DNA of 64,000 nucleotides from Azolla caroliniana (lineage: Eukaryota; Plantae; Polypodiophyta): contig JBHGNT010000014.1 in NCBI GenBank assembly GCA_043228905.1, positions 8,308,001 to 8,372,000 of the forward strand. Reading direction: 5' to 3'. Below, in pieces: positions 3,544-61,915 of this stretch. The position numbers were made by a program, and so were the translations under genes. The stretch's first letter is position 1, and each line of letters opens with the position of its first letter. The notes below the pieces were generated by a model that made no database searches, had not been told where the DNA came from, and saw only the letters and a program-made list of their open reading frames with translations.

Positions 3544-3547
3544 ACTG

Positions 3548-14056: not shown

Positions 14057-14103
<47 letters not shown>

Positions 14104-19424: not shown

Positions 19425-19481
<57 letters not shown>

Positions 19482-19525
19482 GTGTTGTTCTCTGTTTTAT
19501 GCTTCCGCAAACACTCACGTTTACA
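13730..19525 (+). mobile_element. Ty1/Copia LTR retrotransposon, both LTRs present, decayed
   Basis: LTRs 13730-14142 and 19095-19525; PBS-Met 14143-14154; PPT GAGGGGGAG 19086-19094; 5-bp TSD GACTT on both sides. Confidence 0.96.
14237..18779 (+). pseudogene. Copia gag-pol with stops, frameshifts and an integrase-core deletion near 16090
   Basis: CWYCGKKGHRESEC; WYVDSGVSNHMT; LWHKRIGH..CEACQLGK; LHSDVWGP; QMDVKNAFL; LYVDDL; YTDADWAG; KHIEVHYHFVRE. Confidence 0.93.
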
Positions 19526-22500
19526 GACTTATGCCGGCACTCGGGCTGGCAGCCAGTTCGGTTAGAGGAACTCCATAGGACCGGCTCTCATTCTCGTTCC
19601 AACTCTCGACCTTCGCCCGGTCGGTCTTTCTCCCCATGTAAAAGAGGGCGGCTCGTCCCGCACCCTCTCTCGTATCGGCACCTTCATGCCGAATCCGGCC
19701 CCGATCGGACGATCCACGACCAGATTCTGCTCCATACGAATCGGAATGCCGATCTTCTCGTGTTGCTTCCGTCCTCGGCCTCCTCGTGGGCCGTTTCCCA
19801 TCCATCTTCACTGGCATCGTGCCAGGACTCCTCAGTACCGCCATCCATCTCCTCGGTCTTACATGGGCATACGGGCCCGAATGCCGAGTTCTCCGGAATT
19901 GGGTCCGTGGGCTTTCGTCCGCTCCCTCCCCGTATAATGTCGCCGGTGATTCTTGGCCTTTCGCTGCCGCCTTCCTCCGCTTGGGACTCACGTTGGCACT
20001 CAGGCCCGACTGCCATCGTCTCGGGAGCAAGTGTGGGAAGACACAAAGAATCGTCTGTCCGTTTCGCGCCCTTGTCCGTAGCCACCGACTCTTCGTGGTC
20101 GGCGGTCGTCTTCTTACCGATCACGCAAGCCCCACCTGGGCTTGTTTCTCCGATGACCGGGATCTCGGGCTGACACGTCCGAAACCGCTGGTCCCAACAT
20201 TTCGATTCCGCGATCGGTATCTCGGCCTCGTCCTTGGCCGTTCTATCTCTGCAAGTCGAGAGGGCGTTTTGTTCCGCACCCTCTCCCGTGGTACCATGGT
20301 ACCGGTCTTCCGCCGTCGCGTGGGGCAAGTCGGTCTTTTCAGTCTCGGCTTGCGGCCTCCATCTTTCCTCTTCCTCGAGCATCGCCTCGAGGGACGCGTA
20401 CGCCTCCGCAATCCTGGCCCCAACGCCGACCCTTGCCGACTCTCTTTGTCATTCAGCCTCTTCCCGCTGTGATGGCACACCGTCGTGTACCTTCCTCTTA
20501 GCCTTCTCGACTCGCTCGTCGTCTAGCCGTTGGCACACCCTTCCGACCTTTGACCAGTCCTCCGTAAGCCCATTTGCTCCATCATCGTCTTCGAGCTCAA
20601 TCCCGATGGCCTCCCATTCCGCTCAGTCGATCGACCTAACGAACAATAGGACCTTGTCCGCCCCCACCAAACCTTGTTCCCGCTCCGGGAGCCGAGCAAG
20701 CCGCCACTCAAACTCTCGAAACGCCTTGGCCGCGCCCCGGTGGGTCTTAGCCGATGCTACCCACTGGTCAAAGTCGTGCCGTCCCCGGCTCTTCCGCCGT
20801 CCTCTGTATGCCTTCAGGAGCGCCTCTTTGAAGGCCTCCCACAAACTATGAGCCTCACGGAGCTCCTTCATTTTCGCATGCATCCGGACAGCTACGACCC
20901 GACAGAAGAACTCCAGCCTCAATGCCTCGTCTATGCCACGCTCCTCCATTTCCGCGTTGTAGGCTTCCAAGTAAGATGGGACTTTGTCCCCGTTGAAACG
21001 GTCGACTCTTTCGACCACTCGCTCAACTGCCTGTTGCGCTGCTTCTCGCCTCATCACCACTCATGCCGACTCCAACACCACTTCGGCTACCATCTCCGCA
21101 AGGTCGTCGTCTTCCGACTCCATCCTCCCTTGCCGCCTTTCACGTCGGGTTCACCAAAGATGTCGTGTTGTAACGCGCGTGCGTGGAGAAAGGCGGGACC
21201 ATGGGGTCTTGGACTAGGGAGTGATGGAGCGTAGGAAGTCGTGCTTCACCGTTTCTGGGGGATCCCAGAAGAACACCGGACGCGACCGAAGGGAGAGAGA
21301 GAGAAAGAGAGGGAGCGCGCTCTTAACACCGACTCACGCACACACACACACACATGCCGACCCGACTCACACCCTTATGTACAGGAAACGCAGGAAAGGG
21401 GGAGCACCCGACACCAACAGAGACACGAATATACACAGACAGACGGAAATGTATATATATAAAAGAAGAATACATTCCCAGCTTCGAGCCGGACTGAGGT
21501 AGGTTACAGTAGTCGTTTGCTGCCAAGCCGCCGTCGGGGAGCTCTCGGCTCATCGCGCCGAGCGGGGTTTTGCACAAGAGGCCGCCAAAGCAAACCCTAA
21601 GCAGAACACGAAGGGGGAAAAGAAGAAGAAGAAGAAACTAACCCTAAACCTAACGGTATACCCTCGAATGCAAAATGGGCAACCGTTTCACAAAGGGCGT
21701 TCCCTTCCTTTTATAGAACAAGGAGAGGGATGCGTTACAATGTGGGATAAATCTCGACTTACATGGGATCGTCTGTCCCGACTTTACTACTCTTCGCGCC
21801 ATAAAGGCGCCCTCAATATTCACACTAAATGTACATGGGTGCGTACACACGCTGCACCCCGCCGATGTAGCCAATGTTTCCCGGTTTCCGCCTCTAGCCG
21901 AAATTCTTCACGACACTGGCCGATACTAGTTCGGCTCGATGAGCTACATTAATACAATGTTGATTGCAATATCTGATGCATCGACGAACGCATGGAATGG
22001 ATGTGTCTAGTCCGGGGGTTGGACGACTAGTGCTTGCATCAACATGACTTTCAGAGCCATGTATGCCTTTTCCTTGATTTCTATCCATTTGAACGACCTG
22101 TGATGTACCACTAGGTGTAGAGACGTAGCAAAGTCAGCGAGATAACGCAGCATCCGACTATGCCGTCGAATCTGTCCTAAGAATTGACTCAAGGCTTTGC
22201 TTTTTTTGGGGCCGGTGCCTCGATTATTTCCTTGATTTTCCCCAGTTCCACTCCAATGCCTTCGTTTCTCACTATATGGCCTAAGAATGTGCCACTTGTC
22301 ACTCTGAAAGCACACTTGGCCGGATTGACGCTAAGCCTCGTTGATCTACATAGCTCTAAAAATAACCGCAAGTGCCAAAGATGTTCACTCCGTGTGCTGT
22401 AAACTGCAAAGTCGTCGAGAAATACTTGCATAAAAGCTAGTATGTACTCGCCGAATCTTTTTGTGACTATTCTTTGAAATGTCGCTAGCGCAATTTTGAG

Positions 22501-24074: not shown

Positions 24075-24200
24075 GAAAATTTACACTAGTTACATGTTGA
24101 TGAATAGTAAAAGGGTTATGGTTAACACTTCGTAATTTATTCTCCCTATGTTGTTTTAGCTCTAAAATATAGATACCTAGTGTCATAGACACGATGGAAT

Positions 24201-24260
24201 GTAAGGGGTTGAACCCATGACCTCTTGGTCGTATTGGGCAACCTTACCAATTGAGCTATA
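24201..24260 (-). promoter_or_regulatory. tRNA-like A/B-box cassette in Tcn1-like LTR, antisense (copy at ~29245-29303)
   Basis: TAGCTCAATTGGTAAG...GAGGTCATGGGTTCAACCCC. Confidence 0.65.
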
Positions 24261-24633
24261 TTCCATCTATGCATTATTGTATTGTATAAGTTTCAACTTA
24301 TTACATTGTAAGTTAATCACTAGAACTTTCAAGAAACTTCTAGAGAATGCATAGACATGCACTCTCTAGAAGTTTCCATGCATTCTCTAGATGTTTCCTA
24401 GCTTACATGGATACCACCACATTCTTGTATAAATACTTCGGTGCACCTTGATTACAATCAAGGTGAACAACACCAGTTACGGATGCATAATTTAGTTCTC
24501 GCTCTTTTTTCTACCCTCTCTCTCTCTCTTGTTCTCTTGTCTATGCTCCTCTCTATCTATATATCTATCTTTCTCTCTTTGTTAATATTGAGCTCGCCTA
24601 CTTGTCCTTGCCCTCGTCTATGTCCGTGATAGT

Positions 24634-24644
24634 TTGTTCACCTT
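24634..24644 (+). promoter_or_regulatory. Self-priming PBS (Tf1 type)
   Basis: TTGTTCACCTT is the exact complement of AAGGTGAACAA (24460-24470), which starts 32 nt after the start of TATAAATA (24428). Confidence 0.75.
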
Positions 24645-27600
24645 CCCTTCTTATTACCATGTCTGACTCGGCCTTAAACCAAGTAATGGCAGCCTTGGAG
24701 CAACTTCAATTAGAAAATGAAAGCCTTCGTCAGTCATTGTGAGAGCTTCAAAATAGCACAGCCAACAATCCTTCACCCGTTGAGCCTCACCTTCCGTCCG
24801 CATCTAACCCAACCCCTTCCTCTTCCCATTCATATGTCCTCGAACCTAACGTCAGCCTACTACACAAATTCAACGGCTCGAGGGCGCATCTTCATGGCTT
24901 CATCAATCAAATTTGGCTTATCTTCCGCTTACAACCCCAACGTTATGCTAGTGATGTCTCTCTGGTCGGCCTTGTTGGCAACCTTCCCTCTGGGCCGGCA
25001 CAAGCGTGGTTTGCACCATTGATCGAGACCTCATCACCCCTCCTAGACAACTTTCCTACCTTCCTTGCGGAGCTTGAAGCCACATTCGGAGAGATAGATC
25101 GACGACGAACAGTACTCACGAAACTCTATTCCTTACAACAAGGCTCTCAGCTTCCGTTTATGCTTCAGAGTTTCGCCAGATCGTGTGCGATGTCAGCTGG
25201 GATGAGCAAGCTTTATGCGACCAGTTTCGTCGAGGCCTCCGAAATGATATCAAGACTCTTCTCTTAAACTTTCCGGAGCCCACATCATTGTCCCAGGTAA
25301 TCTCCCAAGCCATTCAATGTGATAATCATCGTTTTGAGCTTCGACAAGAGGAATGGAGGAATCAAGTTTTTCCATCTTCCTCCCGCAATACTCCACTCAC
25401 AAGGCCATACATATCAGTTTCGCCAAGCACGCCACGACTGCCATCTTCCAATAGTACTCATACCCCGATGGAGGTTGATCCTTGTACCCCAATTGAGATC
25501 GCCCATGCTCGGTTCCAACCATTAACCGATGCCCAACGGCAACATCGACGTGACAATAGCCTTTGCCTCTTTTGTGGTACCCCCCGGCCATGTCATCCGC
25601 CACTGCCCGATGCGCAACTGTCATCATCAATCCCACTGTGCACGTCTTACAGAGGTTTCTCAACAACAAGAAAATGATCGTGCACGTCTTGCGGAGGTTT
25701 CTGGACAACAGGAAAACGAGCAAGTCTGGCTGCAGTAGGACCCATGCCGCTGGACACTTTCCATCGCCCTAGTTCTTCGTGCTCCTACAATTCAGTCACG
25801 CCAGCAGGAGGTTTTACTTTGCAAGTAAGTCTTTGTTTTGGGTCTATTTCAATAAAATCCCATGCCTTGCTCGATTCTGGTGCATCTATTTGTTTCATCG
25901 ATATCGCGTTCGCCCGAGCACATAAAATCCCAACCATCCACACAACACAACCCGTATCTGTTGAAGCTATCGACAGACGAGTTCTCTCTTCAGGGGTAGT
26001 TACCGAAGCCACTCTCCCGTTGGTATTTCAAGTCGGGTTCCACCAGGAGGTATTAAAATTCTACCTCATTGCAACCCCTCGTCATCCGTTTGTTTTACGG
26101 CTCTCCTGGTTGGAAACACACAATCCGATGGTGGATTGGTGTAGCCGCTCCATCACTTTTCCACAAACACCAACGCAGGCCCTTTCCACAAACACTTTTA
26201 CTTGTGTGGGGGTTTCTTTTAGCTTGGGTGCACATTCTTTTGATTTCAACTCAATCTCCAACATTGCCGATTCTATTGTGGCCGATTCTAGCGTGGTCAC
26301 TTCCGTGCCTATTGTGTCACAGGACGTCCCTACTCTTGTCACCAATTTACCTGCAAGATATAGCGATTTTTTGGACATGTTTGAAAAGCAAAATGTAGAC
26401 CGGTTGCCGGCACATCGCCCTTATGATTGCCCAATCGAACACCCACCATTTGGGCCCATCTATGGGCTATCTGAACCCGAACTTGAGGCCCTTCGCACAT
26501 ATCTGGATGAAAACCTCGCCAAGGGTTTCATTCAACCCTCCAAATCACCGGCTAGAACCCACCCCAATCTTATTTCTCAAGAAGAAGGACGGCTCATTAC
26601 ACCTATGTGTGGATTATCGGGGTTTGAACAAAATTACGATACGTAATCGTTACCCCTTTCCTTTAATTCCAACACTTCTTGACCGACTTCGAACTGGGCA
26701 TATCTTCTCGAAAATCGATCTTCGGGGAGCCTACAATCTTGTGTGTATCAAGCCAAGAGACGAGTGGAAAACGGACGTCCGAACACGCTATGGACATTTC
26801 GAGTACAAGGTGATGCCTTTTGGTCTCACCAACACCCCTGCGGTCTTTCAACACATGATGAACAATATATTTCGGGAGTATCTCGATCACTTCGTGGTGA
26901 ACTACCTTGATTACATTTTAGTTTTTTCTTCCAACATAGAGGAGCACACCCGACACGCCCGATTGGTCCTATCCAAACTTCGGGAACATGGACTTTACGT
27001 CAAAAGTGAGAAATGTGAATTTGATTGAACCTCTATCAAATTCCTAGGCTACGTGATTTCACCCTCCGGGGTCACAATGGATGCACGCAAGGTAGCGGCA
27101 ATCACCGATTGGCCTTTCCCTACTCACTTGAAAGAGGTACAATTATTTCTTGGTTTTGCAAATTTCTATCGACGATTTATCAATGGTTTTTCATCTTTAG
27201 TACAACCTCTAATCATCCTTACAAGAAAAGATACTCCATTTCTTTGGACCTTTGCGGCGCAACGTGCTTTTGATGCCCTCAAGGCAGCTTTTCTCAGAGC
27301 CCCAGTGTTGGTCCCAACCAGACGACGAGGGCACACTACGTCATGTTGCCTTCTACTCTCGGAAGTTTACTGCCCCGGAAATCAATTATCCAGTCTACGA
27401 CAAGGAGCTGATAGCAATCATATCTACATTCACCGAATGGCGACCCTATTTGGCTGGGGCCCAACATCACATCCAAGTGTTGACCGACCACAAAAATCTA
27501 ATTTACTTCACCACCAGTCGTACATTGAATCGGAGGCAAGCCCGATGGTTATCTTTTCTCACCAACTATGACTTTGAGATCTTGTTCCGACCCTGAGTTC

Positions 27601-29674
27601 AACATGGGAAAGCGGATGCCCTCTCTCGGCGACATGATTTTGCATTGCGCCCAGGAGATGATGCATATTCACAAAAATCCCATTGTTTGTTGCGGCCCGA
27701 TCAACTTCAGATGTTCGCCACCTGCATGTTACATGATGATTCTTTGCCCAACGAGATCGCCACGACAACCGTGTCAGACCCATTCGCCAAAGAAATCATG
27801 GGTTGCATTAATGACCCATCTTCAGATAGTAAAAGCTCATATCTCAACCAATTTACAACCCAGGATGGGTGACTATATCGTAATCATCTCTTGTACATTC
27901 CCGAAGGATCATGTCGTACACGGGTTCTACAAAATTGTCATGATGATCCTCTTGCCGGCCACTTTCGGGTTACGAAAACCCTGGAATTGCTATCTTGAGG
28001 GTTTTGGTGGCCCCAAGCTTCGAAATTTGTCAAGGAATTTATCAAGACATACGATGTATGTGCTCGGTCCAAAATGCCTCACCATTGGCCATATGGTCTT
28101 CTCCACTCGCTCCCCATTCCACGTCGACCATGGGTCTCTCTATCCATGGACTTTATCACCGACCTCCCTCTGGTTGGTGGACATGACACGATGCTAGTCA
28201 TTGTCGATCGGTTTTCGAAGATGGCTCACGTTGTTCCATGTTCCAAAACCATTTCCGAGGAAGAGACATCTGATCTTTTTCTTTAAAATGTTGTTCGATT
28301 GCATGGCTTAACTAAGGATATCACCTCTAATTGAGGTTCTCAGTCCATTTCCCACTTTTGGCGACAACTTCTACAAACATTCGGAACTTCTGTCAACTTG
28401 TCCTCAGCATACCATACTCAAACTGATGGACAAACGGAGTGAGTCAACCAAATCCTTGAACAATACCTTCGGTGTACCGTGAGCTACCAATAGGTGGATT
28501 GGGTGGACTTCCTTGCAATGGCGGAATTTGCTTACAATAATAGTATCCATGCTTCGACTAAGGTTCCCCCCTTCTTTGCAAACTATGGATTTCACCCTCG
28601 TTTCAGCATTTCCATACCTGCAACTTCGGTCAATCCTTCGGCAGAGACGTGTGTCAGCGCTTTACATGATGTCCATCGTGAGCTCTCCTTGGAGCTCTGT
28701 GTTGCTAGTGACCACTATAAAGGTCAAGCGGATCGACATCGCTTAGCTACACCGACGTTTGCAATCGGGCACATGGTTTGGTTGTTATGTCGTCACATCG
28801 CCACCACATGTCCTTGTGCAAAATTGGACTACAAACGACTAGGCCCTTTTCGTATCATCAAGCGGATCAACCCAGTCGCCTTCCGGTTAGCACTTCCTCC
28901 AACATTCAGGATTCACGATGTTTTTCACGTTTCCCTCCTCAAACTCTACCATCCTTCTCGAATTCCAAGACAACACCCTCCTCCATCGCCACATGTGGAA
29001 TTGTCAACGGGCGAAGAATATGAGGTTGACCAAATCGTCCACTCTCGATATCGTCGTCGACAGCTCCAATATTTGGTCTAATGGAAAGGTTACCCCATTT
29101 TAGATGCCACATGGGAACCAGTTACACATTTACAAAATGCTCTGGATGCCACTCGCGATTTTCATCAACGATACCCACATAAGCCAGCCGCGAGTCTCGG
29201 GAGGCGGCCTTAAAGGGAGGATAATGTCATAGACACGATGGAATGTAGAGGGTTGAACCCATGACCACTTGGTCTTATTGGGCAACCTTACCAATTGAGC
29301 TACATTCCATCTATGCATTATTGTATTGTATAAGTTTCAACTTATTACATTGTAAGTTAATCACTAGAACTTTCAAGAAACTTCTAGAGAATGCATAGAC
29401 ATGCACTCTTTAGAAGTTTCCATGTATTCTCTAGATGTTTCCTAGCTTACATGCATGCCACCACATTCTTGTATAAATACTTCGGTGCACCTTGATTACA
29501 ATCAAGGTGAACAACACCAGTTACGGAAGCATAATTTAGTTCTCGCTCTTTTGTCTACCTCTCTCTTTCTTGTTCTCTTGTCTATGCTCCTCTCTATCTA
29601 TATATCTATCTTTCTCTCTTTGTTAATATTGAGCTCGCCTACTTGTCCTTGCCCTCGTCTACTGTGATACCTAG

Positions 29675-31876: not shown

Positions 31877-32163
31877 TGAATTGTAATACAAAAGATATTA
31901 GTTTCATTTATTATTTCTATAGGAAATTCATGTATATTCTAGATTATTATGGATCATTCTAAAAACTTCAAGATTAATCTTGATGCACTATAAATAGAGG
32001 CATAAGGCATTATTTCAAACCAATTCGGTTCAACCTCAGTAGTAAGCCACATAGTTATTTTTGTATATTCTCTTCATAAAACATATTGTTTGTACCGAAT
32101 TTGCTTCGTTCTCATCTTCGTATCCCTCATTCCCTTCATACAAATATTCTTATCCTTCCTTCT

Positions 32164-34730
32164 TGTTACCCGTAAGAATATACGGGGAGGCATAAGGGTA
32201 TGTGTAATGATGTGGTTGATGTGTATGTATAAAGTAAATGAGTTTGTGAGGATGAGTATGTGTATGGACATATGCTCAATTATGTGCATCTGTACAAGAA
32301 TGTGTAACGGTCTTATTTATAACGGTCTGTAACCATTACATTGGATGTATTATATAAACCCCCTATGGGGTATGTAATGAGATACCTTTTTTCCCCTCTC
32401 ACATTTGTGTCATTTTCTATTTGTCTTTCTCTCTAGCTCTCTCACTATCGTAACCCCCTTGGGAGGGGGGTGAAGCCCCAACAACACTTTTGGCACGCCC
32501 TACGGACAACCCTCCCTTGAGAGGAAGTCTCTCTCCCTCCCTCCCTATTCCATCCATTCCCTTTGTTTCTTCATCTCGTGCACCAGACATCTCCATCTCC
32601 ATATTCATCAAAGTGTGTTGTTGCGCCACTTCATAGTGAAAGACATCGGAATGAGTCTGTTGCCATTGATACTTGATCTCTACTTTGACCAACACTTGAT
32701 TTGCAATACCGGGTTCTTTTACACTATATGCTTCCCAAGAAGAGAGTTGTTGGGGAAATCTTTGAAGAAAGTATACTCAGAATAGGAGGAACAGAGCACC
32801 AATACAACCACGGTTGTTGATGGAAGTCCTTCCCAACCCTAACCGTCGGTTCCCCCTCTAGTCCCAAACCTTCCATCTGCCTCGTCATCTTCTTCTCTAA
32901 GCTCTTGCTATACCACCTATACCACAACTCCGCAGGCAAAAAGGCTTGTGCATCTGCTCTCCATATCATCGATCTTGTCGCAGCACAGTTTCCATGGATC
33001 TCAATGAAGAAGGAATCGTCAAAAGGGATGTTTACTTGTACCTCTTCTCCTGCAGAATCAATTACTCTACTACGGCGGTGAGTACTGCTGATTCTGATTA
33101 ACCTCTTCCTACCCTCGGTAGGAATTCTCAGATTCGGATGAGGCGGAATAATCATTGGAAAGAGCATATCTGAACATTGCATATGATCCAGAAGCAATAA
33201 ACGACCCAAGCATGTATAACTTCGATGGAAACTATGGGGAGTTGAAGAAGAAGAAGAAGAATAAGAATACTATGCTGTCAAAGAAGAAGAAGAGAAGTGA
33301 TGTGATGGATCATAGAGACATGGTTGTATCTGGAGCAGACGATAATCTCAAAAAAAAGTACAAGTAACTACTACCCTAACAACACTACCACGCCATCAAG
33401 AATTGTGGCCGGTCGCTATAATGCCCATCAATCTGTCACACCTACGTCTAAAGAAGTCAATTTCTTCATCCATTTCCTCTGTTTCTACCATTCCTAATAA
33501 GAAGCAAGACCGAAGGACCTACAGATCCTTCACTTCATCTCTGCCACTGTACCACCTCCGCCATGGTAGTCGGTGTTGCTGCATTGCCTGCCAACCTTGT
33601 AGTGAAGAGAGCCATCATAACTTGCAGCGGCTATCCATCCCGTTCAGGCCTCACTACACTTGTCAAATCAGCCCCACCTTCTACTCTCTCAAACGCTCCA
33701 TCAATATGTTCCACTGATCTTCATCTCCGAAGCTCGGTATCATCGAGAAAGCAGGCCACAATTACCACCAAGGGCAGTCCTCATGGGTCAGACACCCAGG
33801 AATGATGGACAGCCGCTGCCACTGCCATCACCGCCGTAATCGCCTAGCCGCCATCCACTAGAATCGAAAGGTTCCAATACAAATTGAAGAATTGAAAAGA
33901 GAAAAGAGAAAGGGGCAGAGAAGAATATTACAAGAACTCGAGGGCACACACTCGAATTTCAAAAGCTCGAGGGTAGAAGACAAAATTTCAAAAGCACAAG
34001 GGCACAATACGAAATTTTAGAAACTCAAGGGCACACAAGCTAATTTTGGAAGGGCAGGACATGAGATTTGTAATATTGGAGGGTACTTAATATAATTTTA
34101 GAAAAAACCTGAGGGGTAGGACATAAAATTTCAAAAACACAACTCACATGAAGAAAGAAAGAATACACAAACGCACAACACAATTTCACGACCCATGCCA
34201 CATTGAACTAGCCGATTGGTGGATGATCCAATCGCGACTTGTGTTGGTTCGCGTCAAGCAAAGCTCTGATCGAAGTTATCAATTGTAGAGCAGTGATCCG
34301 GTCGAGCGATTTTCGACCGTTGAGACGACCGATGGAGTTCCGGTCGAGAAGAGTCGCCATAGCGAGTGGGTTCACCGTGCAATGCATTGTCCCACGGACG
34401 TGCCATGTGTTACTTGTAAGAATATACGGGGATGCATAAGGGTATGTGTAATGATGTGGTTGATGTGTATGTGTAAAGTAAATGAGTGTGTGAGGATGAG
34501 TATGTGTATGGACACATGCACAATTATGTGCATGTGTACAAGAATGTGTAACGGTCTTATTTATAACGGTCATGTAACCGTTACATTGGATGTATTATAT
34601 AAACCCCCTATGGGGTATGTAATGAGATACCTTTTTTCCCCCTCACATTTGTGTCATTTTCTATTTGTCTTTCTCTCTAGCTCTCTCACTATCGTAACCC
34701 AGAATGGCTTCACCCCCCACCCCAACAACA
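32164..34730 (+). mobile_element. Non-autonomous LTR element (TGTTACC family) with PBS-like motifs at both internal ends
   Basis: Two 323-bp LTRs (32164-32486, 34408-34730); TSD CTTCT/CTTCC; TGGCACGCCCTACGGACA at 32491-32508; TGTCCCACGGACGTGCCA at 34388-34405; no recognisable retro ORF. Confidence 0.88.
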
Positions 34731-34748
34731 CTTCCTCCAATACTACAG

Positions 34749-35495: not shown

Positions 35496-37849
35496 ACGAC
35501 AATTGTTAGCGCTCAAGAATACCAATATGTCCTCTTTGAGTTGTAGTGCTTAAAAGAAAAGTTTGCAACACTAGAACATGAAAATCAACGATTGTTGGGG
35601 GATCTTCAACAAATCTCTCTAGAGATGTAGCAAAAGCAACAAAAACATGGAGAGTTGGCGGTATGTGTACAATAACTTGAAGCAACCATTATGTCTTTGC
35701 AATAACATGGATCAAGTACTCAAGGATTTCATAAAGAACCCAACATTGGTCTTCCTACAAAATTCGACGAAACTCACAATTCAAGGGATTCCTTAATCAG
35801 GTACATGTCGTGATTCAAATGCATCCTTCCCGATATCCCATCAATGCTTCACGAGTGGGATTAGTAGGCGCGTTGCTTAGTGGCCCAGCTTTGGCATGGT
35901 TTGCACCATTATTAGAACAAAGATCTCTATTGTTAAATAATTTTGAGGAATTTATTAGCAAGTTTAGAGCCTGTTTCGGGGACACCGATAGCATTAGGAC
36001 GAGAATCAATAAAATCCGAAGATTGCATTAAGGTGATCGTCCAGCCTCAGCCTATGCTGCAGATTTCCGTCTACTCGCCGCCAATATCCCCTGGGATGAT
36101 CTAGCATTGATGGAGCAGTTTCAATATGGCCTTCGAAATGATGTCAAAGGTTTACTCCTAACTTTTCCCGAAGAACCCAAGTTGCTCACAGAGGCCATCA
36201 GTCGAGCGGTATGTTGTGATAACAAACTTTTTGAACAACGTTCGAAACGTCAATTACAAATGCCAAGAACAAGGCCGGAGCCCACATATGCCTCAGTCGT
36301 AGCAAAACCATGTGCAAGGGATTCATATAATGTGTCTCTAGCAAATACTCCAACGCCGATGGAAATCGACACTACACGTCGTCGCGGACCGTTATCGGAA
36401 GAGGAAAAGCAGCAACGCCGAGAAAATCAACTATGCCTTTATTGTGGACAAAAGAAGAGTTAAACGACTAAGTCCAGCCAAAATAGGAGCCATTTGGTTG
36501 GACAGCCCTAGATATGTGTAGCCCATTAGTAGTTCTATTCCCTCTAAACAAGTTAGCAATGTCTTCCTAGCTTAAGTAACTATTAATACTAGAAGTATCC
36601 CTCTAGTACATGTCTTAACACTCCTAGATTCCAGAGCTAATTCTTGCTTCATGGATAAGAATTTTGCCCAAGCTCAGCAGATATCCCTAAGAAAACTCCC
36701 TTGCCTAGCCTCTATAGTAGTCATTGATGGTCACCCCATTGCCTCCGGAAATATCGTAGAAGAGTTAGAGCTAGTTAGGGTTGTCCTAGATAATTTGACA
36801 TGTGTAGTATCATTCAATATAATTAGTAGTCCAAAACATCCCATTGTTTTGGGGTTACCACGGTTCGAGTTACACAATCCAGACATAGATTGGAGAACAA
36901 AAGAAATCCGGTATCGACAACCTCGAGAATCTACTCATAAGGTTTCAACCATTTTGCTACATCAACTGTGTGAGGAAGGACGCAAGGAATCAATTTTTGT
37001 ATTCATAGTATAAGTAAAACCTTCCAACATCACTAAAGAGGAATCCATAGTTCAACTTCCAAAGAAGTATCATTATTACGCCGACATGTTTGATAAGGTA
37101 CAAGCCAGTACTTTGCCTCACCATCGACCGTATGATTATCGCATTGATTTACAACCAGGAAAAGAGCCACCTTGGTGTTAAGCGTTGGGATAACAACACA
37201 ACCAGTCACGAATAAGAACGCATCAACAAGGACGTAGTACGAAGAGGAAACGGCAAGAGGAAAGGAAAGCAAAGAGACGGCCAAATGTGAAAGGCCCATA
37301 CCCTAAACGTGAAAGCTATATAAACCACATAGTAGTGTCTTTGTGGGGGTTCTCCCATTTGTAAAGATCTCCGATTGATTAGAGCTAGAGCTTTCTCTCC
37401 TCTTTCTTGTAAACCTTTGAGCTTAAGAGAGATTGGTGAAGTGTTGAGTTAGAGAACACTAATCTCTCCCCTTGTTGGTGCTAGACCTCTTAGCAAAGAG
37501 GGTTAATAATAGACATACTCTTGCTTCTTATTGTCTATACTATTGATCTATTGTTTATGAGAGAGAGAGCTTGAGAGAGTGAGAGAGATATCGTGCTTAA
37601 TCATTTACTAATTGTTGAGTGAGTGTGAGGCTCGGAGGTATCCGACCACCATCTCCGCCCGATTCGCCATCAAGAGGGTATACGCCGGTCCGAATCCTGC
37701 ACGACATCGAGGAGCTTACTCCATCGATACATAGATCCTTAACATCTATTTGGCGCCGCTGCCCGGGATACGACCGATGCTTGAAGCCTATTTCGAGTAG
37801 TCGAAAACTCGAAGGCAACCCACTTAACGAAGGAAGAAAGCAAAAGAGA

Positions 37850-38200
37850 ACCACTATTTTCTGTTTTTCTTACTATTTCAGAGTTTAATTAAGTTGATTT
37901 TCTGTTTTTCTCACTATTTCATAGTTTAATTAAGTTGATTTTGTGTTTTTCTCACTAATTCATAGTTTAATTAAGTCCCATTTTCAGTTTTTTCATCATT
38001 TCATAGTTTAATTAAGTTCCATTTTCTGTTTTTTCATCGTTTCATAGTTTAATTAAGTCCCACTTTCTGTTTTTTCATCATTTCATAGTTTAATTAAGTC
38101 CCATTTTCTGTTTTTTTCATCATTTCATAGTTTAATTAAGTCCCATTTTCTGTTTTTTTCATCATTTCATAGTTTAATTAAGTCCCATTTTCTGTTTTTT
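37850..38200. repeat. ~40-bp tandem array (~8 copies) with TTAATTAA core in 5' leader
   Basis: TTTCATAGTTTAATTAAGTCCCATTTTCTGTTTTTT repeated. Confidence 0.9.
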
Positions 38201-38344
38201 CGCTCGGTTAACATTAAACATTGTGGAGGTTTAGGCCGTTACGGGGCAAGCATAATCGCCGCGAGTCTCGCGGCTTACGATCACCCTATGGGTCACAAAG
38301 CGACCGTTGGCGCCAAAAATTTTGAATTTCCCACGCAAAGCTCG

Positions 38345-38728
38345 TCGAAGCTTCAACCTTCGACGAACATTCAACCTCCGACGAACATTTAACCTTCGAC
38401 GAACATTCATCCTCCGACGAACATTTAACCTTCGACGAAGATTCATTCTTCGACGAACATTCATCCTTCGACGAACATTTAACCTCCAACGAAGATTCAT
38501 TCTCCGACGAACATTTAACCTCCGACGAAGGTTCATTCTTCGACGAACATTTAACCTCCGACGAACGTTCAACCTCCGACGAATCTTCAACCTCCGACGA
38601 AGCTTCAACCTCCGATGAAGCTTCATCCTCCGACGAAGCTTCAACCTCCGACGAAGCTTCAACCTGCGACGAATCTTCAACCTGCGACGAAGATTCATCC
38701 TTCGACGAAGATTCACCCTTCGACGAAC
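38345..38728. repeat. 18-bp tandem array (~21 copies) just upstream of gag
   Basis: TTCAACCTCCGACGAA(CA/GC/GA) repeated. Confidence 0.92.
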
Positions 38729-38772
38729 CTATAAAAAAATAAAAAAAATAAAAAAAAACTTGACCAGAAAAC

Positions 38773-40194
38773 ATGGCCGGATCCTCATGGACAGAAATGT
38801 TCAAAACCCGACCTGCACGCCTGGAAGAGTCCACGCAAACCGACCAAACCCATGATGTTGGCCTGCCTAACCCGACTCAGTACCACAGAGGGTGGCTAAC
38901 TCCGGGGATACTACCAAACAAGAACCTCCCATCGAGCCCAGGACCTAAAGCACTTCTCAACACACCCCCACTACAGGAGAGCCCACTCAATGTAGAACGA
39001 CATATACGAGACGCAACGCAAGAGTTACGAGTGATAGAACACGAAATCAATCTATGGACGGTACAACTTGCGAAAGGAGGACAACCGGAAAGCACCACTC
39101 GAGATATCGAAGCTGCTTTGGCCGAAAGGAAGGATAGATTCACACGAGTGCAACAAAAACTTCACCACCTAGAAACATCGTCGCACATACACCGCCGAAG
39201 TCAGGAGCACAGCCCCGTACCGCGTTTGAGCACAACGGGCGATAGCCCGAACGAAACCCGTGCACAACGACACCCGGCACCACCATCCATGGGCACAATC
39301 CCTACACCTGACCAAGCTACACCTACACCTCCAAACGCCGAACTCGCACTCGCGCTACAATCCATACAAACTCTTGTAGCATTGATGGAAAAAGAGCGAG
39401 CACCCATAGACCATCTGAGAAACCTCACAAATGACTGCGGGAAGAGTGCTTCCATTTCTAAACTAGTACCCCGTTTCCTCGGTTTCGGCGATGCCTATGA
39501 CCATGTCGAGAGGTTCAAACAGATTTGCCGCGCTTACGAACCCCTCACAGAGATCACCAAGGTAGCTGCGTTTGGACTCACACTTGATGACCAAGCCGAC
39601 ATCTGGTTTCGAACCTTGAATGAAGACATCGCCGCCGATTTCGAGTACGTCATCGAGGATTTCTTGATAAACTTCGCTCGTCGAGGGAATAAATGGAACC
39701 TGATTGACCAACTTTTCGCCCTCAAACAAGAAGCAAACGAAACGGTCAAGGACTACATACGTCGCACGAAAAGCTTGCATCATCGTTGTAGTCGGAACGA
39801 CAAGATGTCGGATGACAAGTTGACGAGCTGTTTCATTAATGGGTTGTTTGATACGACACTCCAAAATTTCCTGATTGCCCGAATGTGTCGATCGTTTACT
39901 GAAGCCTGCACAGTAGTGATGACCTTTGAAGATTCGATGAGTGGATTACACATACCCACTCACGCACCCACGAACAACCGCGAGAAATCCTCCGACCCCA
40001 CCCCTGCTCTACCCACACCACCGCGAACACCCCGTATAGAAAGACCCCAAGCATACGCCCAACGAGAAAATGTAAGGTGCACGGTATGTCACGGACACCA
40101 CACGGGACATGAGTGTCCCCTCCTTCATCAACGACGGCCGCAATACTGTAAGTGGTGCAAAGCTTTCGTAATGCATACGCAAGAGAACTGCTAG
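38773..40194 (+). CDS. gag: gag (473 aa)
   Basis: Retrotransposon gag core (DHVERFKQIC, ADIWFRTL, LKQEANETVKDY, FINGL) and two CCHC-like knuckles. Confidence 0.85.
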   Translation: MAGSSWTEMFKTRPARLEESTQTDQTHDVGLPNPTQYHRGWLTPGILPNKNLPSSPGPKALLNTPPLQESPLNVERHIRDATQELRVIEHEINLWTVQLAKGGQPESTTRDIEAALAERKDRFTRVQQKLHHLETSSHIHRRSQEHSPVPRLSTTGDSPNETRAQRHPAPPSMGTIPTPDQATPTPPNAELALALQSIQTLVALMEKERAPIDHLRNLTNDCGKSASISKLVPRFLGFGDAYDHVERFKQICRAYEPLTEITKVAAFGLTLDDQADIWFRTLNEDIAADFEYVIEDFLINFARRGNKWNLIDQLFALKQEANETVKDYIRRTKSLHHRCSRNDKMSDDKLTSCFINGLFDTTLQNFLIARMCRSFTEACTVVMTFEDSMSGLHIPTHAPTNNREKSSDPTPALPTPPRTPRIERPQAYAQRENVRCTVCHGHHTGHECPLLHQRRPQYCKWCKAFVMHTQENC

Positions 40195-43100
40195 CAAGCC
40201 CCCACTGAAAGGTACGGCCAAACGCCAATGGTGGAACACCCACGCTCCCCCCCACCACTTAGCTGCCCACCACTACCAGCGATACTCCCTCAACAACCCC
40301 CACTACCGCGCATCGGTGCCCGCCTCGCTGAAATGGAGTATACCACAGATAACCAAACCCAGGTCGGAACGAGAACCCCTGAATATGAAGACCCGTACAG
40401 GGAGTATGGCATTGAAGAAGAGGTGTTATCCCATTTCGTGGATTTTGAAGGTGACCAAATACCAGTGTACGTCCTGAGAGGGGAACAACGTGGACCCCCT
40501 ATGGGATACCGCAACAACAATGGTCTGAGGAGGTCAGAATTGAAATGCTTCAACTGCCAAGGCCCACATATGGTTAGCAAGTGCCCAACCAAACATGAGT
40601 ACTACAACCGGATGGCCCAACGACCACGACACCTCCCACTCGACACGCCCCCACAACCATTGGCGCAAGGGCCCACCCAACAATCACAAGACCTCATCGA
40701 ATGGTTCCAAAGAGAAGCATCATGCCCAGGGTGCGGTAAAGAACACCTAGTACCTGATTGCCCGGAAAAGAAGAAAAGGGTCGGCACAAATTTGTTGTCC
40801 ATTGTGCCATCCAGGATCGGTGCCAATGTCATCACACGAGCCCAACGATTAGCGCACAATTTAAAATACCAAGATCAAGGTCTCCTCGTGACCGCGCGTA
40901 AGAGATGCAAATCTATGAAGAATAATTCCACGCAGACCTCAAAACAAGATCAAGAACCGGAGGGAGACACAGAAACATTACCCGTCAATCCGAATCAAGA
41001 ACTACCGGCACACCTAGCGGCATACCCAAATCCAGTAGCTAAGAAACAAAAAGTAGAAGAATACATCAAACTCATACACCACGAACAGTTTGAAAAATCA
41101 CTTAGCCTCCCCAGCTTAAACTTCGAGCAACTAGAAGAATGGGTAAACCCCTCACCTCCCCCCTTCGTCACACCAACCGACACCCCCGTTTGCCATCCTA
41201 CCTCGATCAAAGAGGTCAACACAACTCTACTCCAACAAATCTTAAATTTAAGATTGCGACTCATATTACGCGAAGTGCAGAGCTACATTGGCACCTTCAC
41301 CATTGACAACCCCCTACTACGACCACTACTCGCCAAAGAAATAGAGTTCACGCTCGAAGAACTACTCAAACTCGACGTTCAACCGTGGCATGATGTCCTC
41401 CGACGCCTCAATGGTGGCCTATCGGCGGGATATGGTGAAGGGATACACACCCACACTCCTCGCACGTCCACAGTCCTCAAACAACCCGAAGGACTGCCAG
41501 TCGATGTCCACGAAGCCCACTTTGAGAGCGACGACACTAGTTTCACTCTACCAGTCTGTGTCAATGGTAAGACATGTGATGCCATCATCAACACCGGAGC
41601 AGGGGTAAGTATCGTCAGTTACGAATGTTGGTGCAAGTGGGGGAGCCCAAAAATGATGCCTTCCGAGGTCAAACTACAAATGGCAGACGGGTCCATCCAA
41701 AGACCGGAAGGCATGATTCCTTCGCATCACTTCACTATACACAGAATGGAGTTCAATCTCACCTTCGTCGTCACAAGATCGTCCAACCATGTAGCCTACA
41801 AGTGCTTACTAGGAAGACCATTCCTACGTATAAGCCACCTGGTCATGGATTTTGGGAACGATATAATCTATATGCGAAAGGACAACAAAACCTTTCGCAT
41901 CAAAGCGTACACACAAAAAGTGCATGAACAAGAAGGCAGCCCTCTCATAGACGATTGGTCAGAAACCACTGAGTTCGAGACCAACCTCCTAGCGTGCAAC
42001 CCCGCGAAGACAGTTCAACTCTTGACCAGAGGCCAACACTTTCCTCAAAGCCCCATCACTTCCAAAGAGGAGAACGCACGTGAGAGAGACGACCAATCCG
42101 TCACCTCCGAGACGTCAGAAATGAATTGGGTGCACGCTCTCGCCACAACCGACGCAATGTATCCTATAGGTACAAAGTGTTGCGATGAGAACGGAGAGAC
42201 AATCTCGTGCTTCAACGTCATCACCCTAGGTCCCCGACGAAAAGACGTAGACGTAGAGGACGAAGAACGGGCACAACGAGTCACACGTCCAGGTGACGTC
42301 ACGACCACTCAAGAGGCGGTGACGGAAGCGGACTTCCTAGAGCATTTCAAACTCTATGAACAAGGGAGTAGGGCAGTGGCTTGTAAGAGACCGCAACGCA
42401 ACCCCCAAGGCCTAGGAGAAGTCTACGATGGACCACCAAGGGTGAAAGAAATCAACCTTGGGAAAGGGGCAGACTCTAAACTGGTGTTCATAGCTACAGA
42501 TCTCCAACCGGACGAGGAGGCGTCCTTGATCACTCTCCTCATAGAATTTAGCGACGTGTTTGCATGGTCGTACGTCAACATGAAGGGAGTCCCAGCCGAG
42601 GTCGTCACACATAGTATCCCCATGCGAGCCGACGCCCGCCCAATCCGGCAAAGGCCACGTCCAATGAATCCTAACTACGCCCAACAAGTGAAAGCCGAAA
42701 TCAACAAAATGTTAGCCGCAGGCATTATCTACCCAATCGAACGAACTACTTGGGTCTCCCCAATTGTGGTCGTCCCAAAGAAAAACGGTCAGATCCGCAT
42801 ATGTGTAGACTACCGCCAAGTTAACGAAGCCACTATCAAGGACAATTACCCGGTACCCTACATCGAACATTTACTCGAAAGAACCGCGGGAGCGGAAGTG
42901 TATAGCTTCATCGACGGGTTCTCCGGGTACAACCAAATCTCGGTGGTCCCTGAGGATCAACACAAGACCGCTTTCGCCACGGAATTTGGTACGTTCGCGT
43001 ATAAACAGATGCCTTTCGGACTCACGAGCGCCTTGAGCACCTACCAAAGAGCAGCAGACCATATCTTTGCCGCAAGGTTATGCCAAGGGGTGGAGTCTTA

Positions 43101-44861
43101 TGTTGACGACTTATGTTGCAATTCGAAATGCCATGACCACTTGGGGCTACTCCGTTTGACGTTCGAAAAATGCAGAACCTATCAACTCTCTCTCAACCCG
43201 CTCAAGTGTCAGTTCTAGGTCAAGCACGGAATAATATTAGGACACGTCGTGTCCCGCCACGGGATCTCGAACGACGAGGCAAAAGTAAAACTCATCCTCG
43301 ACATGCCACCCCCCACGAACGAGAAACAACTACATGGGTTCATGGGATATGCGGGTTACTATAGACGCTTCATTAAGATGTTCGCCGGACAAGGCTAGAC
43401 CACTCTACTCCCTATTAAAGCAGTTCGTATGGACAGAGGAATGCACACACTCCTTCAAACTCTTGAAAGAGTGCCTAACTAAGGCTCCCATCCTCCGGCC
43501 TCCCAACTGGACCAAAGAATTCCACGTGCACACTGACGCTTCCGCCTTCGCGATTGGTGCAGTGCTAGCCCAACCCGGTGAAGGGGCACTCGACCTACCG
43601 GTCACCTTCGCTAGTCGCCAGCTAAATGCCGCGGAACGAAATTACTCCACGACGGAACGGGAGGCTTTGGCCATGGTCTACAGCGTAAAGAAATTCCGCC
43701 ACTACCTGTTGGCGTCCCGGTTCTCGTTTTTTGTAGACCATCAGGCCCTACTCTACTTAGTAAACAAAACTCATGCCACTGGACGCATCTCACGATGGAT
43801 TGTAACGTTACTCGAATTCGACTTCAAGGTAGTAGTGAGAAAAGGGAAAGACCATGTACTCGCCGATCATTTCTCCCGGATTCCCAACGGAGAAGAAGCC
43901 ACTGGGGTCGATGATGAAACACCAGATGCAGCATTATTTGCAATCGATACCGTACCAGCATGGGCATCAGACATAGTTCGCGTCCTAACCGAAGGAGCGT
44001 CCTTCCTAAAACAACTACCACGAACACACGCACGTGCCTTGCTAAAGAATTGTGGCCCCTTCACGATGCTCCGAGGCAATCTATACCGTCGAGGTAATGA
44101 CAATCTACTTCGGAGGTGTATAACAGACCATGATGTCGTCACCACCCTCGAACAAGCTCATTGCGGGGGCGGAAGTGGTCATTTCAATCACGAGACCACT
44201 GCGCGCAAGATCCTTCAGTCCGGCCTATGGTGGCCAACACTCTTCAAAGACACATACGCGTACGTACGTCGCTGTGACGAGTACCAACGTTTCAAACACC
44301 CGCTAAAAGCGAATTTTAATACGTTAAACTCGGTGGTGGCATGGCAACCATTCGAGAAATGGGGTATCGACTTTATCGGCCCAATCAGCCCAGCTTCCAA
44401 CCTCAACCGATACATAATAACCGCCACCGACTACGCCACCAAGTGGGTTGAAGCGAAAGCTTGCGTTAACGCTGACGCGGGTAGTACCGCCAAATTCCTA
44501 TATGAAAATGTCATCGTACAGTTTGGATGTCCGCTCGAAATCATTAGTGACCGAGGCTCACATTTCTTGAACAAGGTGATAGCACATTTATTAGGGGAGT
44601 TTTTGGTGACACACCGCAAAAGTTCTCCTTATTACCCTCGATGCAACGGACAAGCGGAAAGCACAAATAAGGTGCTATGTGCAGTACTCACAAAGATAGT
44701 CGCTGCCTCCCGATCTGATTGGAGCACCAAACTCCAAGCAGCATTATGGGCTTTCCGTTGTCGTAGTGTATTTTGTACACTACGTGAAAAACGTATATAG
44801 TATTAGATTCAATAAAAAATGAAGAAATAGAAGAAAATAGCAAAATAAATGGAACATGCAT

Positions 44862-44923
44862 AGGGCAAGATTCGAACCTTGCACCTCCATGTTAATAATG
44901 TAATGTCTTACCATTACACTAGC
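44862..44923 (-). promoter_or_regulatory. tRNA-like A/B-box cassette in LTR, antisense (copies ~47565-47626 and ~34851-34911)
   Basis: GCTAGTGTAATGGTAAG...GGAGGTGCAAGGTTCGAATCTTGC. Confidence 0.65.
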
Positions 44924-45435
44924 ATTTCATTAGTCTTAAAGCATAGATGTCCCACATAGAAAGGTAAATTCACGCTAGGATAAACATTAGAAAAACGCAT
45001 AACAAAAGAAAAAGCTACACATACACATCTAGCGTGCATGATAAAAAACGCACAAGTTAGAAAAAAGCATGATCACTTTAGATAAAGCATATAGTCTATC
45101 TATAGGAAAAGCATGGGGTCTATAGTTAGAGAAAAAGCATGGATTACTAAGACTTCCTCATCACTACATAAGGATAGGAAGCACAATGTAATTATGTGAA
45201 AAATATTTGGAAACTAGATATGTTTCTAAAAAACACCAATTAATAAACTATACTCGTGGGATTCACGAGTTTGCTATAACTCTTTCTTACAACATATTTA
45301 TATTCTTATTAGCCTTAAAACTCTCTTCTTCCTAGTCCAAAACCCCAGTGGTTCCCACCCGACTCACGCAAACGATCCGGAGCCGAAAGGCACGACACAG
45401 TTGGTGAACCCGACGTGAAGGCGGGTGGCAAGGAG

Positions 45436-50002: not shown

Positions 50003-50355
50003 CCTTTTTTATTTTTTATTTTATTTTTTGTTTTATTTTTTATTTTCTATTATTTTTTTTGTTTGTTAATTTTATTTATTTATTTATTATCTATTTAGTT
50101 ATTTTTATTTTTTAATTAATTTATTTATTTTTATATTTTATTTAATTATTTTTATTTTTATATTTTATTTTATTTTATTTTATTTTATTATTTATTTTTT
50201 ATTTTCTATTTTTTTTTTTTTTTTTTTTTTTTTTATTTTTTATTTTTTTATTTTTTATTTTTTATTTTTTTTTATTATTTATTATTTATTATTTATTATT
50301 TTTTAATTTTTAACTTTTAATTTTTTTAATTTTTTTAATTTTTTTAATTTTTTTG
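50003..50355. repeat. ~350-bp T/A low-complexity tract
   Basis: Almost only T and A (TTTTA units), between pol and the 3' extra region. Confidence 0.9.
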
Positions 50356-51047
50356 CTTTTTCTTTTCTTTCGTTTTTCTCCTTCTTCTTCTTCTTCTTCT
50401 TTTTTCTCCTTCTTCTTTGCTCTACCTCCCCTCCCTCCTTTTTTTCACCCTCCTCTTTCTGCTTGTCCCCTCCCTTCTCACTCCACGCTTCCACGCTCTG
50501 CAGTAGTCTTCCTCCCCTCCCCGCTCACACTATTCCTCCCCTTGCCCCCCCCAATCTCTGTTGTGGCTTTCTCCCACCCTTAGCAGCCCCGCCCCTCCTC
50601 CACCGGTTGCCTGCGCCGGTCGCCGCCTCGCCTCCCCCACACCTTGCTTTCCCACGCCTTGGGTAGGCCCTCCCTTCCCCCCCCTCTCTCTCGTTTTGAC
50701 ACACCACACTGCACTCCCCTCGTACCTGCCCTTCGTTCCTCTGCTGGGGCCATGGCCGCCGCCATGACGCTGTCCTCCTCCTCTTATCACCGGCACACTA
50801 CGGGCCTCCCAGCCGTGGCGGCCATCGCCGGCACACTACGTCTACTCTACTCCCGTGGCGGCCATCGTCGTTGCCATGTCGCCGCCACCCCTCCTCGTGG
50901 CGGTGCCCGTCCACGCTGCCCCACCGTCCCGACGTTTTTTCTCTCTTTCCCTTCTTTCTTTTGTTCCCCCCGAGGTGGTTGCGACAGCTGCCTCGTCGTT
51001 TCACCCTCCCCACGTCATTGGCCGTTTCCAGCCCACTCCACCGCGTG

Positions 51048-51605
51048 GTTCGAGGGACCCAACCCCTCGAACCACCCGTTGTTCGAGGGGCCAAACCCCT
51101 TGAACTCCCCGTTGTTCGAGGGGCCCAACCTCTCGAACTACACAACGTTCGCGGGGCCCAACCCCTCGAACTCCCCATTGCCCGAGGGGTCCAACCCCTC
51201 GAACTACACAGCGTTCGAGGGGCCCAACCCCTCGAACTCCCCGTTGTTCGAGGGGCCCAACCTCTCGAACTACACAGCGTTCGAGGAATCCAACCCCTCG
51301 AACTACACAGTGTTCGAGGGGCCCAACTCCTCGAACCACACCCGGCCCAACCCCTCGAACTACACAGTGTTAGAGGGGCCCAACCTCTCGAACTACGCAG
51401 CGTTCGAGGAATCCAACCCCTCGAACTACACAGTGTTTGAGGGGCCCAACTCCTCGAACCACACTCGGCCCAACCCCTCGAACTACATAGTGTTCGAGGG
51501 GCCCAACTCCTCAAACTACACCCGGCCCAACCCCTCGAACTACACAGTGTTCGAGGGGCCCAACTCCTCGAACCACACGTTGTTCGAGGAGTACAACTCC
51601 TAGAC
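51048..51605. repeat. 33-bp tandem array of palindromic units (~18 copies)
   Basis: GTTCGAGGGG-CCCAA-CCCCTCGAAC plus 8-nt linker. Confidence 0.92.
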
Positions 51606-61846: not shown

Positions 61847-61915
61847 GTCCGTTCATACCTCGATTTTTAATGATTTCTTTTTTTTTTTTCTTTTTTTTTT
61901 TGACGGTATGTGATC

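Follow-up and report, generated by a model that had tools for sequence, protein, structure and literature searches.

The stretch of DNA analysed here (the window; 64,000 nucleotides of Azolla caroliniana, contig JBHGNT010000014.1, positions 8,308,001 to 8,372,000) is a nest of plant-type retrotransposons with long terminal repeats (LTRs); our subject is a 2567-bp non-autonomous member of that nest, at window positions 32164-34730. Priming of the plus strand from a polypurine tract (PPT) is treated as a general rule for LTR retrotransposons and retroviruses (PMC5371799, PMC6317226 and PMC10886601). In this element there is no PPT, and a copy of the 3' end of a tRNA-Arg, ending in CCA two bases before U3, stands in its place, as the initial annotation of the locus had proposed. 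The features of the element, numbered within the window, are as follows.

32159-32163, no strand: left target-site duplication (TSD), CTTCT, identical to the right copy at four of five bases.
32164-32486, plus strand: 5' LTR, TGTT...AACA, with a TATA-like TATATAAA at 32351-32358; defined by LTR comparison, with polarity from the shared LTR start and the position of the motif in coding relatives.
32487-32490, plus strand: 4-nt spacer between the 5' LTR and the primer-binding site (PBS); 2-7 nt in related families.
32491-32500, plus strand: PBS; its 10 nt are complementary to the tRNA-Arg(UCU) 3' end, by comparison with the tRNA in locus L002 (see below).
32728-32832, plus strand: decayed fragment captured from the 5' part of a ubiquitin-activating enzyme E1 gene, by DNA match to locus L070.
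33932-34142, plus strand: degenerate 29-bp repeats of the 3' internal region.
34366-34375, plus strand: T-arm block resembling tRNA positions 49-58 (5' strand of the T stem and T loop), 8/10 in this copy.
34377-34387, plus strand: 4-bp hairpin with a 3-nt loop, lying between tRNA positions 58 and 59; supported by covariation.
34389-34405, plus strand: sense copy of the 3' end of tRNA-Arg(UCU), positions 59-76, terminated by CCA and standing where a PPT would be.
34406-34407, plus strand: 2-nt spacer TG (GG, TG, TA or AG in relatives); its length was set by the search pattern, and unselected contigs show no indel at or above 4%.
34408-34730, plus strand: 3' LTR.
34731-34735, no strand: right TSD, CTTCC, 4/5 against the left copy.

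The two LTRs are direct copies with TG...CA ends, 96.3% alike across their first 294 nt and differing over the last ~30 nt by a small inversion, and the flanking CTTCT and CTTCC agree at four of five bases. Near its 3' end each LTR retains one arm of an inverted repeat (32461-32477 and 34706-34722); in the relatives L037, L080 and L012 (L numbers denote the metagenome loci described below) both arms are present, as a G-rich/C-rich hairpin in U5. The element encodes no gag-pol, its longest internal frame being 181 amino acids; the four internal frames had no match in Pfam, and tblastn of the pol proteins of the window against the element found none either. The last 15 nt before its 3' LTR have a purine share of only 0.53, compared with 0.73-0.80 in the four other two-LTR elements of the window, and because those four do carry a purine tract at this place, the absence of a PPT is specific to the focal element.

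The initial annotation had placed one motif, TGGCACGCCCTACGGACA, at 32491-32508 and a second, TGTCCCACGGACGTGCCA, at 34388-34405, with TG and then the 3' LTR after it, and had counted 14/18 identical bases when the first was compared with the second in reverse complement; both the coordinates and the count were reproduced. The tRNA site after the 5' LTR is real, but only 10 of its 18 nt match the tRNA, and the bases that give the additional matches differ among sister copies (TACGGCC..). The site before the 3' LTR is also present and is longer than had been claimed, extending over about 34366-34405. These ~40 nt consist of the T-arm block, the covarying 4-bp hairpin and then 17 of the last 18 nt of the tRNA; relative to tRNA-Arg(UCU) the 17-mer lacks one C and, in the focal copy, has one substitution; on the minus strand, 34389-34405 has the form of a PBS. 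On a rough, uniform base model, the probability of a 16/17 match with one bulge at this fixed position by chance is ~5e-8. Across the window the 10-mer by itself, one mismatch allowed, shows no enrichment (5 found, 2.6 expected), and it is the position of the motif, not its mere occurrence, that is non-random.

A scan of the window for PBS-like words revealed the same site at 58856-58873, two bases before an LTR at 58853-58435. The sequence 58435-64000 is a coding Ty3/gypsy element, in which RNase H-integrase and two extra open reading frames (ORFs) run on the minus strand towards the site and, because pol fixes the polarity of this element, the site lies at the PPT position of a coding element. 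The features of this region are as follows.

58435-58853, minus strand: 3' LTR of the coding Ty3/gypsy element, sharing its first bases alone with the focal LTR.
58856-58895, minus strand: tRNA-like site, 2 nt before the LTR (T-arm block 58895-58886, hairpin 58884-58874, 17-mer 58872-58856).
59297-61852, minus strand: two extra ORFs, sense with pol; no Pfam family above the cut-off.
61916-64000, minus strand: RNase H-integrase part of pol, with the acidic motifs of RNase H present.
57096-57616, plus strand: relic of a related non-autonomous family, by family match to L012; an LTR with a different PBS, TGGCGACCAC, at 57607.

The breadth of the feature was assessed by searching metagenome contigs with a 21-letter pattern, which gave 119 loci with 123 matches. 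For 119 of the 123, the required TG either runs on into what resembles the start of an LTR or is cut off by the end of the contig; the matches in L045, L057, L073 and L100, which have no LTR start, were taken as chance and removed before all counts. The base before the motif, which was not selected, is T in 117/123 matches, and the commonest spacer gives A-GG before the TG (66/123). The 106 LTR starts fell into 37 clusters at 80% identity (13 junctions with <40 nt downstream were excluded), one cluster having no upstream sequence and so being absent from the alignment of the site. The contigs come nearly all from one assembly series and therefore represent many families of one host or its close kin, not many hosts. 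At 32 junctions, homologues of the lineage's pol or extra ORFs are found upstream in sense, as against two junctions (L048 and L064) with antisense homologues, both located at the 5' end of a non-autonomous copy or beyond it, and in L068 the 5' PBS, relatives of gag-pol and the 3' site stand together on one contig. In five loci (L006, L011, L037, L080 and L066) the non-autonomous relatives are arranged in tandem as LTR-internal-LTR-internal or are collapsed circles.

For a check free of selection by the motif, four runs bearing four organism labels were used, and their contigs were aligned to 34345-34435 at 80% likeness. The site was covered by 286, 345, 107 and 117 contigs in the respective runs, with no indel at 4%; no variant reached 4% in 34389-34394 or 34401-34405, and G at 34398, the base of the tRNA, was found in 58-99% of the depth. 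After 34411-34413 many of these contigs diverge into the sequences of other LTRs. Over 34188-34603 the summed depth, a quantity that is not copy number, exceeded that of the internal region hundreds-fold (14,600-49,300 compared with 44-170 in run X1, which may be from the window's own source). Outside these data, viral contigs contained neither an exact match to the motif nor a relative of the RNase H-integrase, prokaryote genomes gave no match by protein or by pattern, and no look-alike windows were found in other genomes; 5' LTRs with their flanks, searched across the loci, yielded no further clean TSD. A viral contig matched by a relaxed pattern, L120, is GC-rich DNA without an LTR start and was taken as chance. 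The copy of the tRNA 3' end in place of the PPT is thus a feature of families and of a lineage.

The structure of the site was compared across 38 representatives. The T-arm block has a mean likeness to the tRNA of 8.1/10, compared with 4.9/10 in 270 control windows, and lies 13-14 nt from the 17-mer in 34/38. In the hairpin, 92.8% of cells are paired and all four pairs vary on both sides; its covariation score, uncorrected for kinship, was equalled in 0/500 shuffles, and all slid controls scored lower. The outer pairs of the T stem, in contrast, are lost without compensation in many families (G49 in 20/38, U50 in 26/38), and no compensatory change was found there, the 3' side of this stem having been fixed by the search pattern. 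Folded as a single strand, whether RNA or DNA, the site is no stabler than shuffles (z of 0.4 to -1.6 for the 46-nt RNA). A purine run of more than 8 within 60 nt before the LTR is absent in 111/112 junctions, and none abuts the LTR. A reading of the site as an RNA polymerase III B box was dropped since the hairpin splits the box.

The initial annotation had named tRNA-Arg(UCU) from the motif, and this identity is upheld by a complete tRNA-Arg(UCU) with an encoded CCA found on the plus strand at L002:1190-1265 (ARAGORN on the loci; 71 bits in Rfam). This tRNA lies in PBS orientation at the end of its contig, fused directly to the last extra ORF of the lineage, and L002 is likely, from this arrangement, to be a deleted copy of an element in which reverse transcriptase (RT) copied the whole primer tRNA. 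The 5' PBS matches it over 10 nt in the focal element and 13 nt in the coding clusters 0, 1 and 12; the 5' PBS of clusters 0, 1, 2, 5 and 12 is one for tRNA-Arg(UCU). ARAGORN found no tRNA in the window itself. Clusters 3, 10 and 29, part of cluster 4 and the relic at 57096-57616 have a 5' PBS of TGGCGACCAC or a close variant, which we take to fit another tRNA, probably tRNA-Arg(UCG), and yet in clusters 3, 10 and 29 and that part of cluster 4 the 3' site is unchanged. In addition, two decayed tRNA-Lys-like sequences lie near a family LTR in L030 (1062-1137 and 2756-2828).

With regard to the placement of the lineage, L052 encodes gag, zinc knuckle, RT, RNase H and integrase in a single frame of 1701 amino acids, the order of Ty3/gypsy elements; the protease of the lineage was detected by tblastn only. 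The element had been labelled Tat-like, a label contradicted by this complete gag-pol, in which a Pfam search found one RNase H region only and no aRH, and the lineage is therefore not Tat, since aRH is the defining domain of that group (PMC6317226). Pfam matched no chromodomain in L052 or in window 61919-62614, and identity to the chromovirus-like element of the window over RNase H-integrase is 24%, which places the lineage outside the chromoviruses. Two extra ORFs in sense after pol, with no aRH, are an arrangement of Athila type; the Athila ORF-1 domain had no Pfam match in the lineage, a domain that only 16% of Athila elements carry (PMC6317226). Identity to the lineage over RNase H-integrase is 47% for a PPT-bearing relative in the window and 44-50% for named proteins of Riccia, Marchantia and Adiantum. 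Among the best 120 matches, Riccia, Marchantia, Adiantum and a single angiosperm supply the named relatives, with 38-55% identity, and this suggests that the host is a land plant without seeds. In an RNase H-integrase tree of 28 rows, which carries no clade labels, a clade with support of 100/99 unites three motif-bearing elements with three unnamed proteins, and the PPT-bearing relative of the window falls outside that clade and groups with Adiantum proteins. A pol match in L041 (26% identity, on a long branch) was set aside as a different and probably nested element, only the extra ORFs of that locus being used. On these sequences the lineage is likely to be Athila-like or basal OTA.

Taken together, the sequences lead us to favour, with moderate confidence, a mechanism in which a second tRNA, also tRNA-Arg(UCU), primes the plus strand on minus-strand DNA. 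The RNA of the element carries the tRNA's own sequence, and the tRNA can therefore bind only minus-strand DNA; with RNA parameters as a proxy, the duplex of the last 28 nt of the tRNA with the minus strand was calculated at -45.0 kcal/mol for the focal element and -47.7 kcal/mol for the element at 58435-64000, compared with -19.1 kcal/mol for the plus strand. The minus strand would be started as usual by a tRNA at the 10-13-nt 5' PBS. After the first jump and digestion by RNase H, it would offer 17 nt complementary to tRNA positions 59-76, with one C bulged, as well as a block complementary to positions 49-58, and the 4-bp hairpin would be looped out between the two; such a hairpin could presumably form in single-stranded minus DNA and not in an RNA/DNA hybrid. 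RT would then extend the CCA end of the tRNA through the two spacer bases into U3-R-U5, RNase H would remove this second tRNA, and integrase would trim two bases to leave the TG...CA ends and a 5-bp TSD. Trimming of two bases by integrase is established for retroviruses; in both window elements the CCA ends two bases before the LTR, which is where a primer must end if integrase trims two bases. The 2.6-kb focal copy would depend on enzymes supplied by coding members, of which 58435-64000 is one example. We further think it rather probable that an entire land-plant Ty3/gypsy lineage, together with its satellites, dispenses with the PPT, both strands being primed by host tRNA, in some families by two different tRNAs, with a split plus-strand site spaced by a hairpin.

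Several observations weigh against this mechanism, which is proposed from sequence. Every collected copy lacks one base of the tRNA, and in the unselected contigs G34396 reads A in 30-63% of the depth. Tests for wobble between the tRNA and minus-strand DNA were flat (G57>A in 8/38 compared with C56>T in 7/38; T>C in 6/114 compared with A>G in 2/38), and the wobbles in the hairpin fit the plus strand in 5 cases and the minus strand in 3 among the 38 representatives, or in 10 and 5 across the 112 junctions. The tRNA of L002 is a single contig end of low coverage and may be a tRNA gene or an assembly join; it is also the only perfect match to the tRNA 18-mer among the loci, where no unremoved tRNA was found before a 5' LTR. 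Furthermore, the metagenome set was chosen by an exact 17-mer, because of which members of the lineage with a changed site or with a PPT could not appear in it. The PBS of Ty3 and of Ty1 is normally not re-copied from the tRNA (PMC5371799), and for this reason the missing base cannot firmly tell which of the two sites primes first.

The alternative that survives best, although we regard it as unlikely, was not raised in the initial annotation: the primer would be the element's own RNA, cut by RNase H after the CCA as at a tRNA/DNA junction, so that the tRNA-like fragment substitutes for a PPT, the site being a captured tRNA end that recognition by the enzyme has preserved. The geometry would be the same, with the primer end two bases before the TG, no second tRNA would be necessary, and both the missing base and the frequent G34396A variant would cost nothing. 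The RNase H of Ty3 selects its primer by the local geometry of the hybrid and the fit between enzyme and primer (PMC5371799), and the wobbles in the hairpin lean slightly to the plus strand (10 compared with 5), although the wobble tests do not separate the two kinds of primer. Against this, the T-arm block and the covarying hairpin, both of which would be melted in an RNA/DNA hybrid, are left unexplained. A folded tRNA mimic is not evident either, the outer T stem being lost and the RNA folding no better than shuffles, and the Arg(UCU) end persists in families whose minus strand has another primer.

Less probable again, by a wide step, is some other role for the site (packaging, dimerization, tRNA recruitment or pausing of RT), with the plus strand started from an unrecognized, adjoining RNA fragment. 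In favour of this reading are the covarying hairpin, as is typical of RNA signals, and the A-GG that the commonest spacer places before the TG; however, the CCA stops exactly at the primer end required by the LTR boundary that the TSD fixes, and no other primer candidate abuts U3.

The initial annotation had offered a further alternative, that the two motifs pair, and in this form the 3' site would bind the 5' PBS of the same RNA and circularize it, or would self-prime the RNA or the end of the minus DNA. The focal element and clusters 0, 1, 2, 5 and 12 are complementary over 10-13 nt (-23.5 and -29.9 kcal/mol), but clusters 3, 10 and 29 and part of cluster 4 pair poorly, the energy falling from -29.9 kcal/mol in L023 to -10.2 kcal/mol in L044. 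The retention of the same 3' site by families with another 5' PBS is therefore the main argument against circularization or self-priming, to which may be added that the T-arm block and 7/17 bases have no 5' partner and that L002 suggests the use of a real tRNA at the 5' PBS. We accordingly consider pairing of the motifs very improbable. Reversed polarity, in which the template would be antisense, the 3' site the first-strand PBS and the short 5' site the primer site of the second strand, seems to us a shade less probable still: the 3' site (17 nt, 2-nt spacer) does look more like a textbook PBS than the 5' site (10-13 nt, 2-7-nt spacer), but this runs against the direction of pol, of the extra ORFs and of the TATA-like motif, and the copy of a whole tRNA inside the element at the 5' PBS position in L002 is what would be expected if the tRNA stood on the first strand. 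Finally, a one-off inversion or chimera, which the initial annotation had named as grounds for discarding the feature, or an assembly artefact is scarcely credible, for although an inverted-LTR rearrangement of the family exists (L028) and the focal LTRs differ by a small inversion, the feature recurs in a second, independent element of the window and in 37 LTR clusters, a 5-bp TSD is present and depth over 34188-34603 is that of a high-copy sequence in four runs. In L028 the LTR copies of the focal family, two in number, are turned towards one another, and both carry the tRNA-like site.

The lineage resembles canonical Ty3/gypsy elements, retroviruses and yeast Ty3 (PMC5371799) in its LTR-PBS-gag-pol-LTR plan, the tRNA at the 5' PBS, the order RT-RNase H-integrase and the position of a primer end just upstream of U3, where it has a tRNA-like site and no purine tract. 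The bipartite PBS of Ty1 and Ty3 likewise comprises two segments, for the acceptor strand and the T arm, those of Ty1 being split by a small loop and one of those of Ty3 lying at the 3' end of the genome; there, however, the segments are complementary to the tRNA on the RNA, serve the minus strand and leave the PPT in place (PMC5371799), whereas here the RNA carries the sequence of the tRNA itself. With Athila and Tat, on the OTA side, the lineage shares the absence of a chromodomain match, extra ORFs after pol, a 5-bp TSD and a tRNA-Arg PBS, and it differs from them in having no aRH, no match to the Athila ORF-1 domain and a replaced PPT (PMC6317226). The focal element resembles terminal-repeat retrotransposons in miniature (TRIM) and large retrotransposon derivatives (LARD), such as Helenus and Cassandra, in its non-coding sequence between LTRs, its TSD and its sequence derived from a small RNA, and tandem arrays, which they also form, are found here in the relatives L011 and L037 (PMC10886601). 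In Helenus, however, the tRNA-like part lies in the LTR as a promoter, PBS and PPT are kept and no role in priming is found for it, while in the focal element the tRNA-like part is internal, outside the LTR, and replaces the PPT; moreover, at 2.6 kb the element exceeds the 1-kb limit for a TRIM (PMC10886601). The self-priming elements Tf1/Sushi and plant Tcn1 also have a primer site served without the usual primer (PMC6317226), whereas here a tRNA PBS is present and the signal altered is that of the plus strand. Full-text literature searches (listings and abstracts) and the accessible parts of PMC6317226, PMC5371799 and PMC10886601 yielded no LTR element in which a tRNA site replaces the PPT, most subscription papers and Repbase reports lying outside that scope; the motif has no match in the supplementary text of PMC6317226, as far as that text is accessible, and the large element tables seem to lie outside it. 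The 10-mer was found in the full-text literature in unrelated papers only. Self-priming of the Tf1/Sushi and Tcn1 kind concerns the minus strand.

A Ty3/gypsy variant that breaks the PPT rule is real, conserved and unusual, and a tRNA-primed plus strand would, if true, be a new route for LTR elements. A high-copy lineage with a tRNA site for a PPT shows that the rule can be broken and provides a natural system for studying primer choice and primer removal by RT and RNase H; even if the element's own RNA were the primer, a mixed-sequence tRNA mimic in that role would be new. We would predict that the site is a second target for silencing by tRNA fragments, and that such elements are given the wrong strand, or are discarded, by annotation tools in which PBS and PPT are scored. 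This locus contributes a non-autonomous member that has a TSD as well as both sites, a coding member within the same window, and families whose 5' and 3' tRNA sites are unlike.

The ubiquitin-activating enzyme E1 piece carried by the focal element was identified through L070, in which the frame adjoining the DNA match itself matches UBA1 (E 2e-10); the 5' part of the E1 gene at L070:204-350, on the minus strand, is common to the non-autonomous family, and the captured piece is probably cargo, outside the mechanism. The internal sequence 32939-33742 is low-copy, is shared piecewise with L016 and L048, and is possibly further captured host sequence.

The remaining elements of the window are of several kinds. 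On the plus strand, 37176-56125 is a related non-chromovirus gypsy element with LTRs 99% alike, a 5-bp TSD, a normal PPT and long extra ORFs, and it serves as a control within the window; its PBS is different and follows a 6-nt spacer, and it contains a nested element at 44759-48104, a young deleted copy of a gypsy lineage with a DUF4100-bearing gag region, whose LTRs are 99.8% alike. This second, distant lineage is also represented at 1-3608 (minus strand), 45319-47460 (plus strand) and L041:3-2360. An older, broken relative of the motif-bearing clade lies at 22189-7540 on the minus strand, with RNase H identity of 59-65% and the relic of an extra ORF; it is interrupted by an insertion at 11389-21915 and ends before its 3' end, so that no site can be read. 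The chromovirus-like element at 24178-29661 has no TGG-type PBS after its 5' LTR and is possibly self-priming. Relics of LTRs of the focal superfamily lie within copia and chromovirus-like coding sequence at 6805-6441 (minus strand) and 57096-57616 (plus strand).

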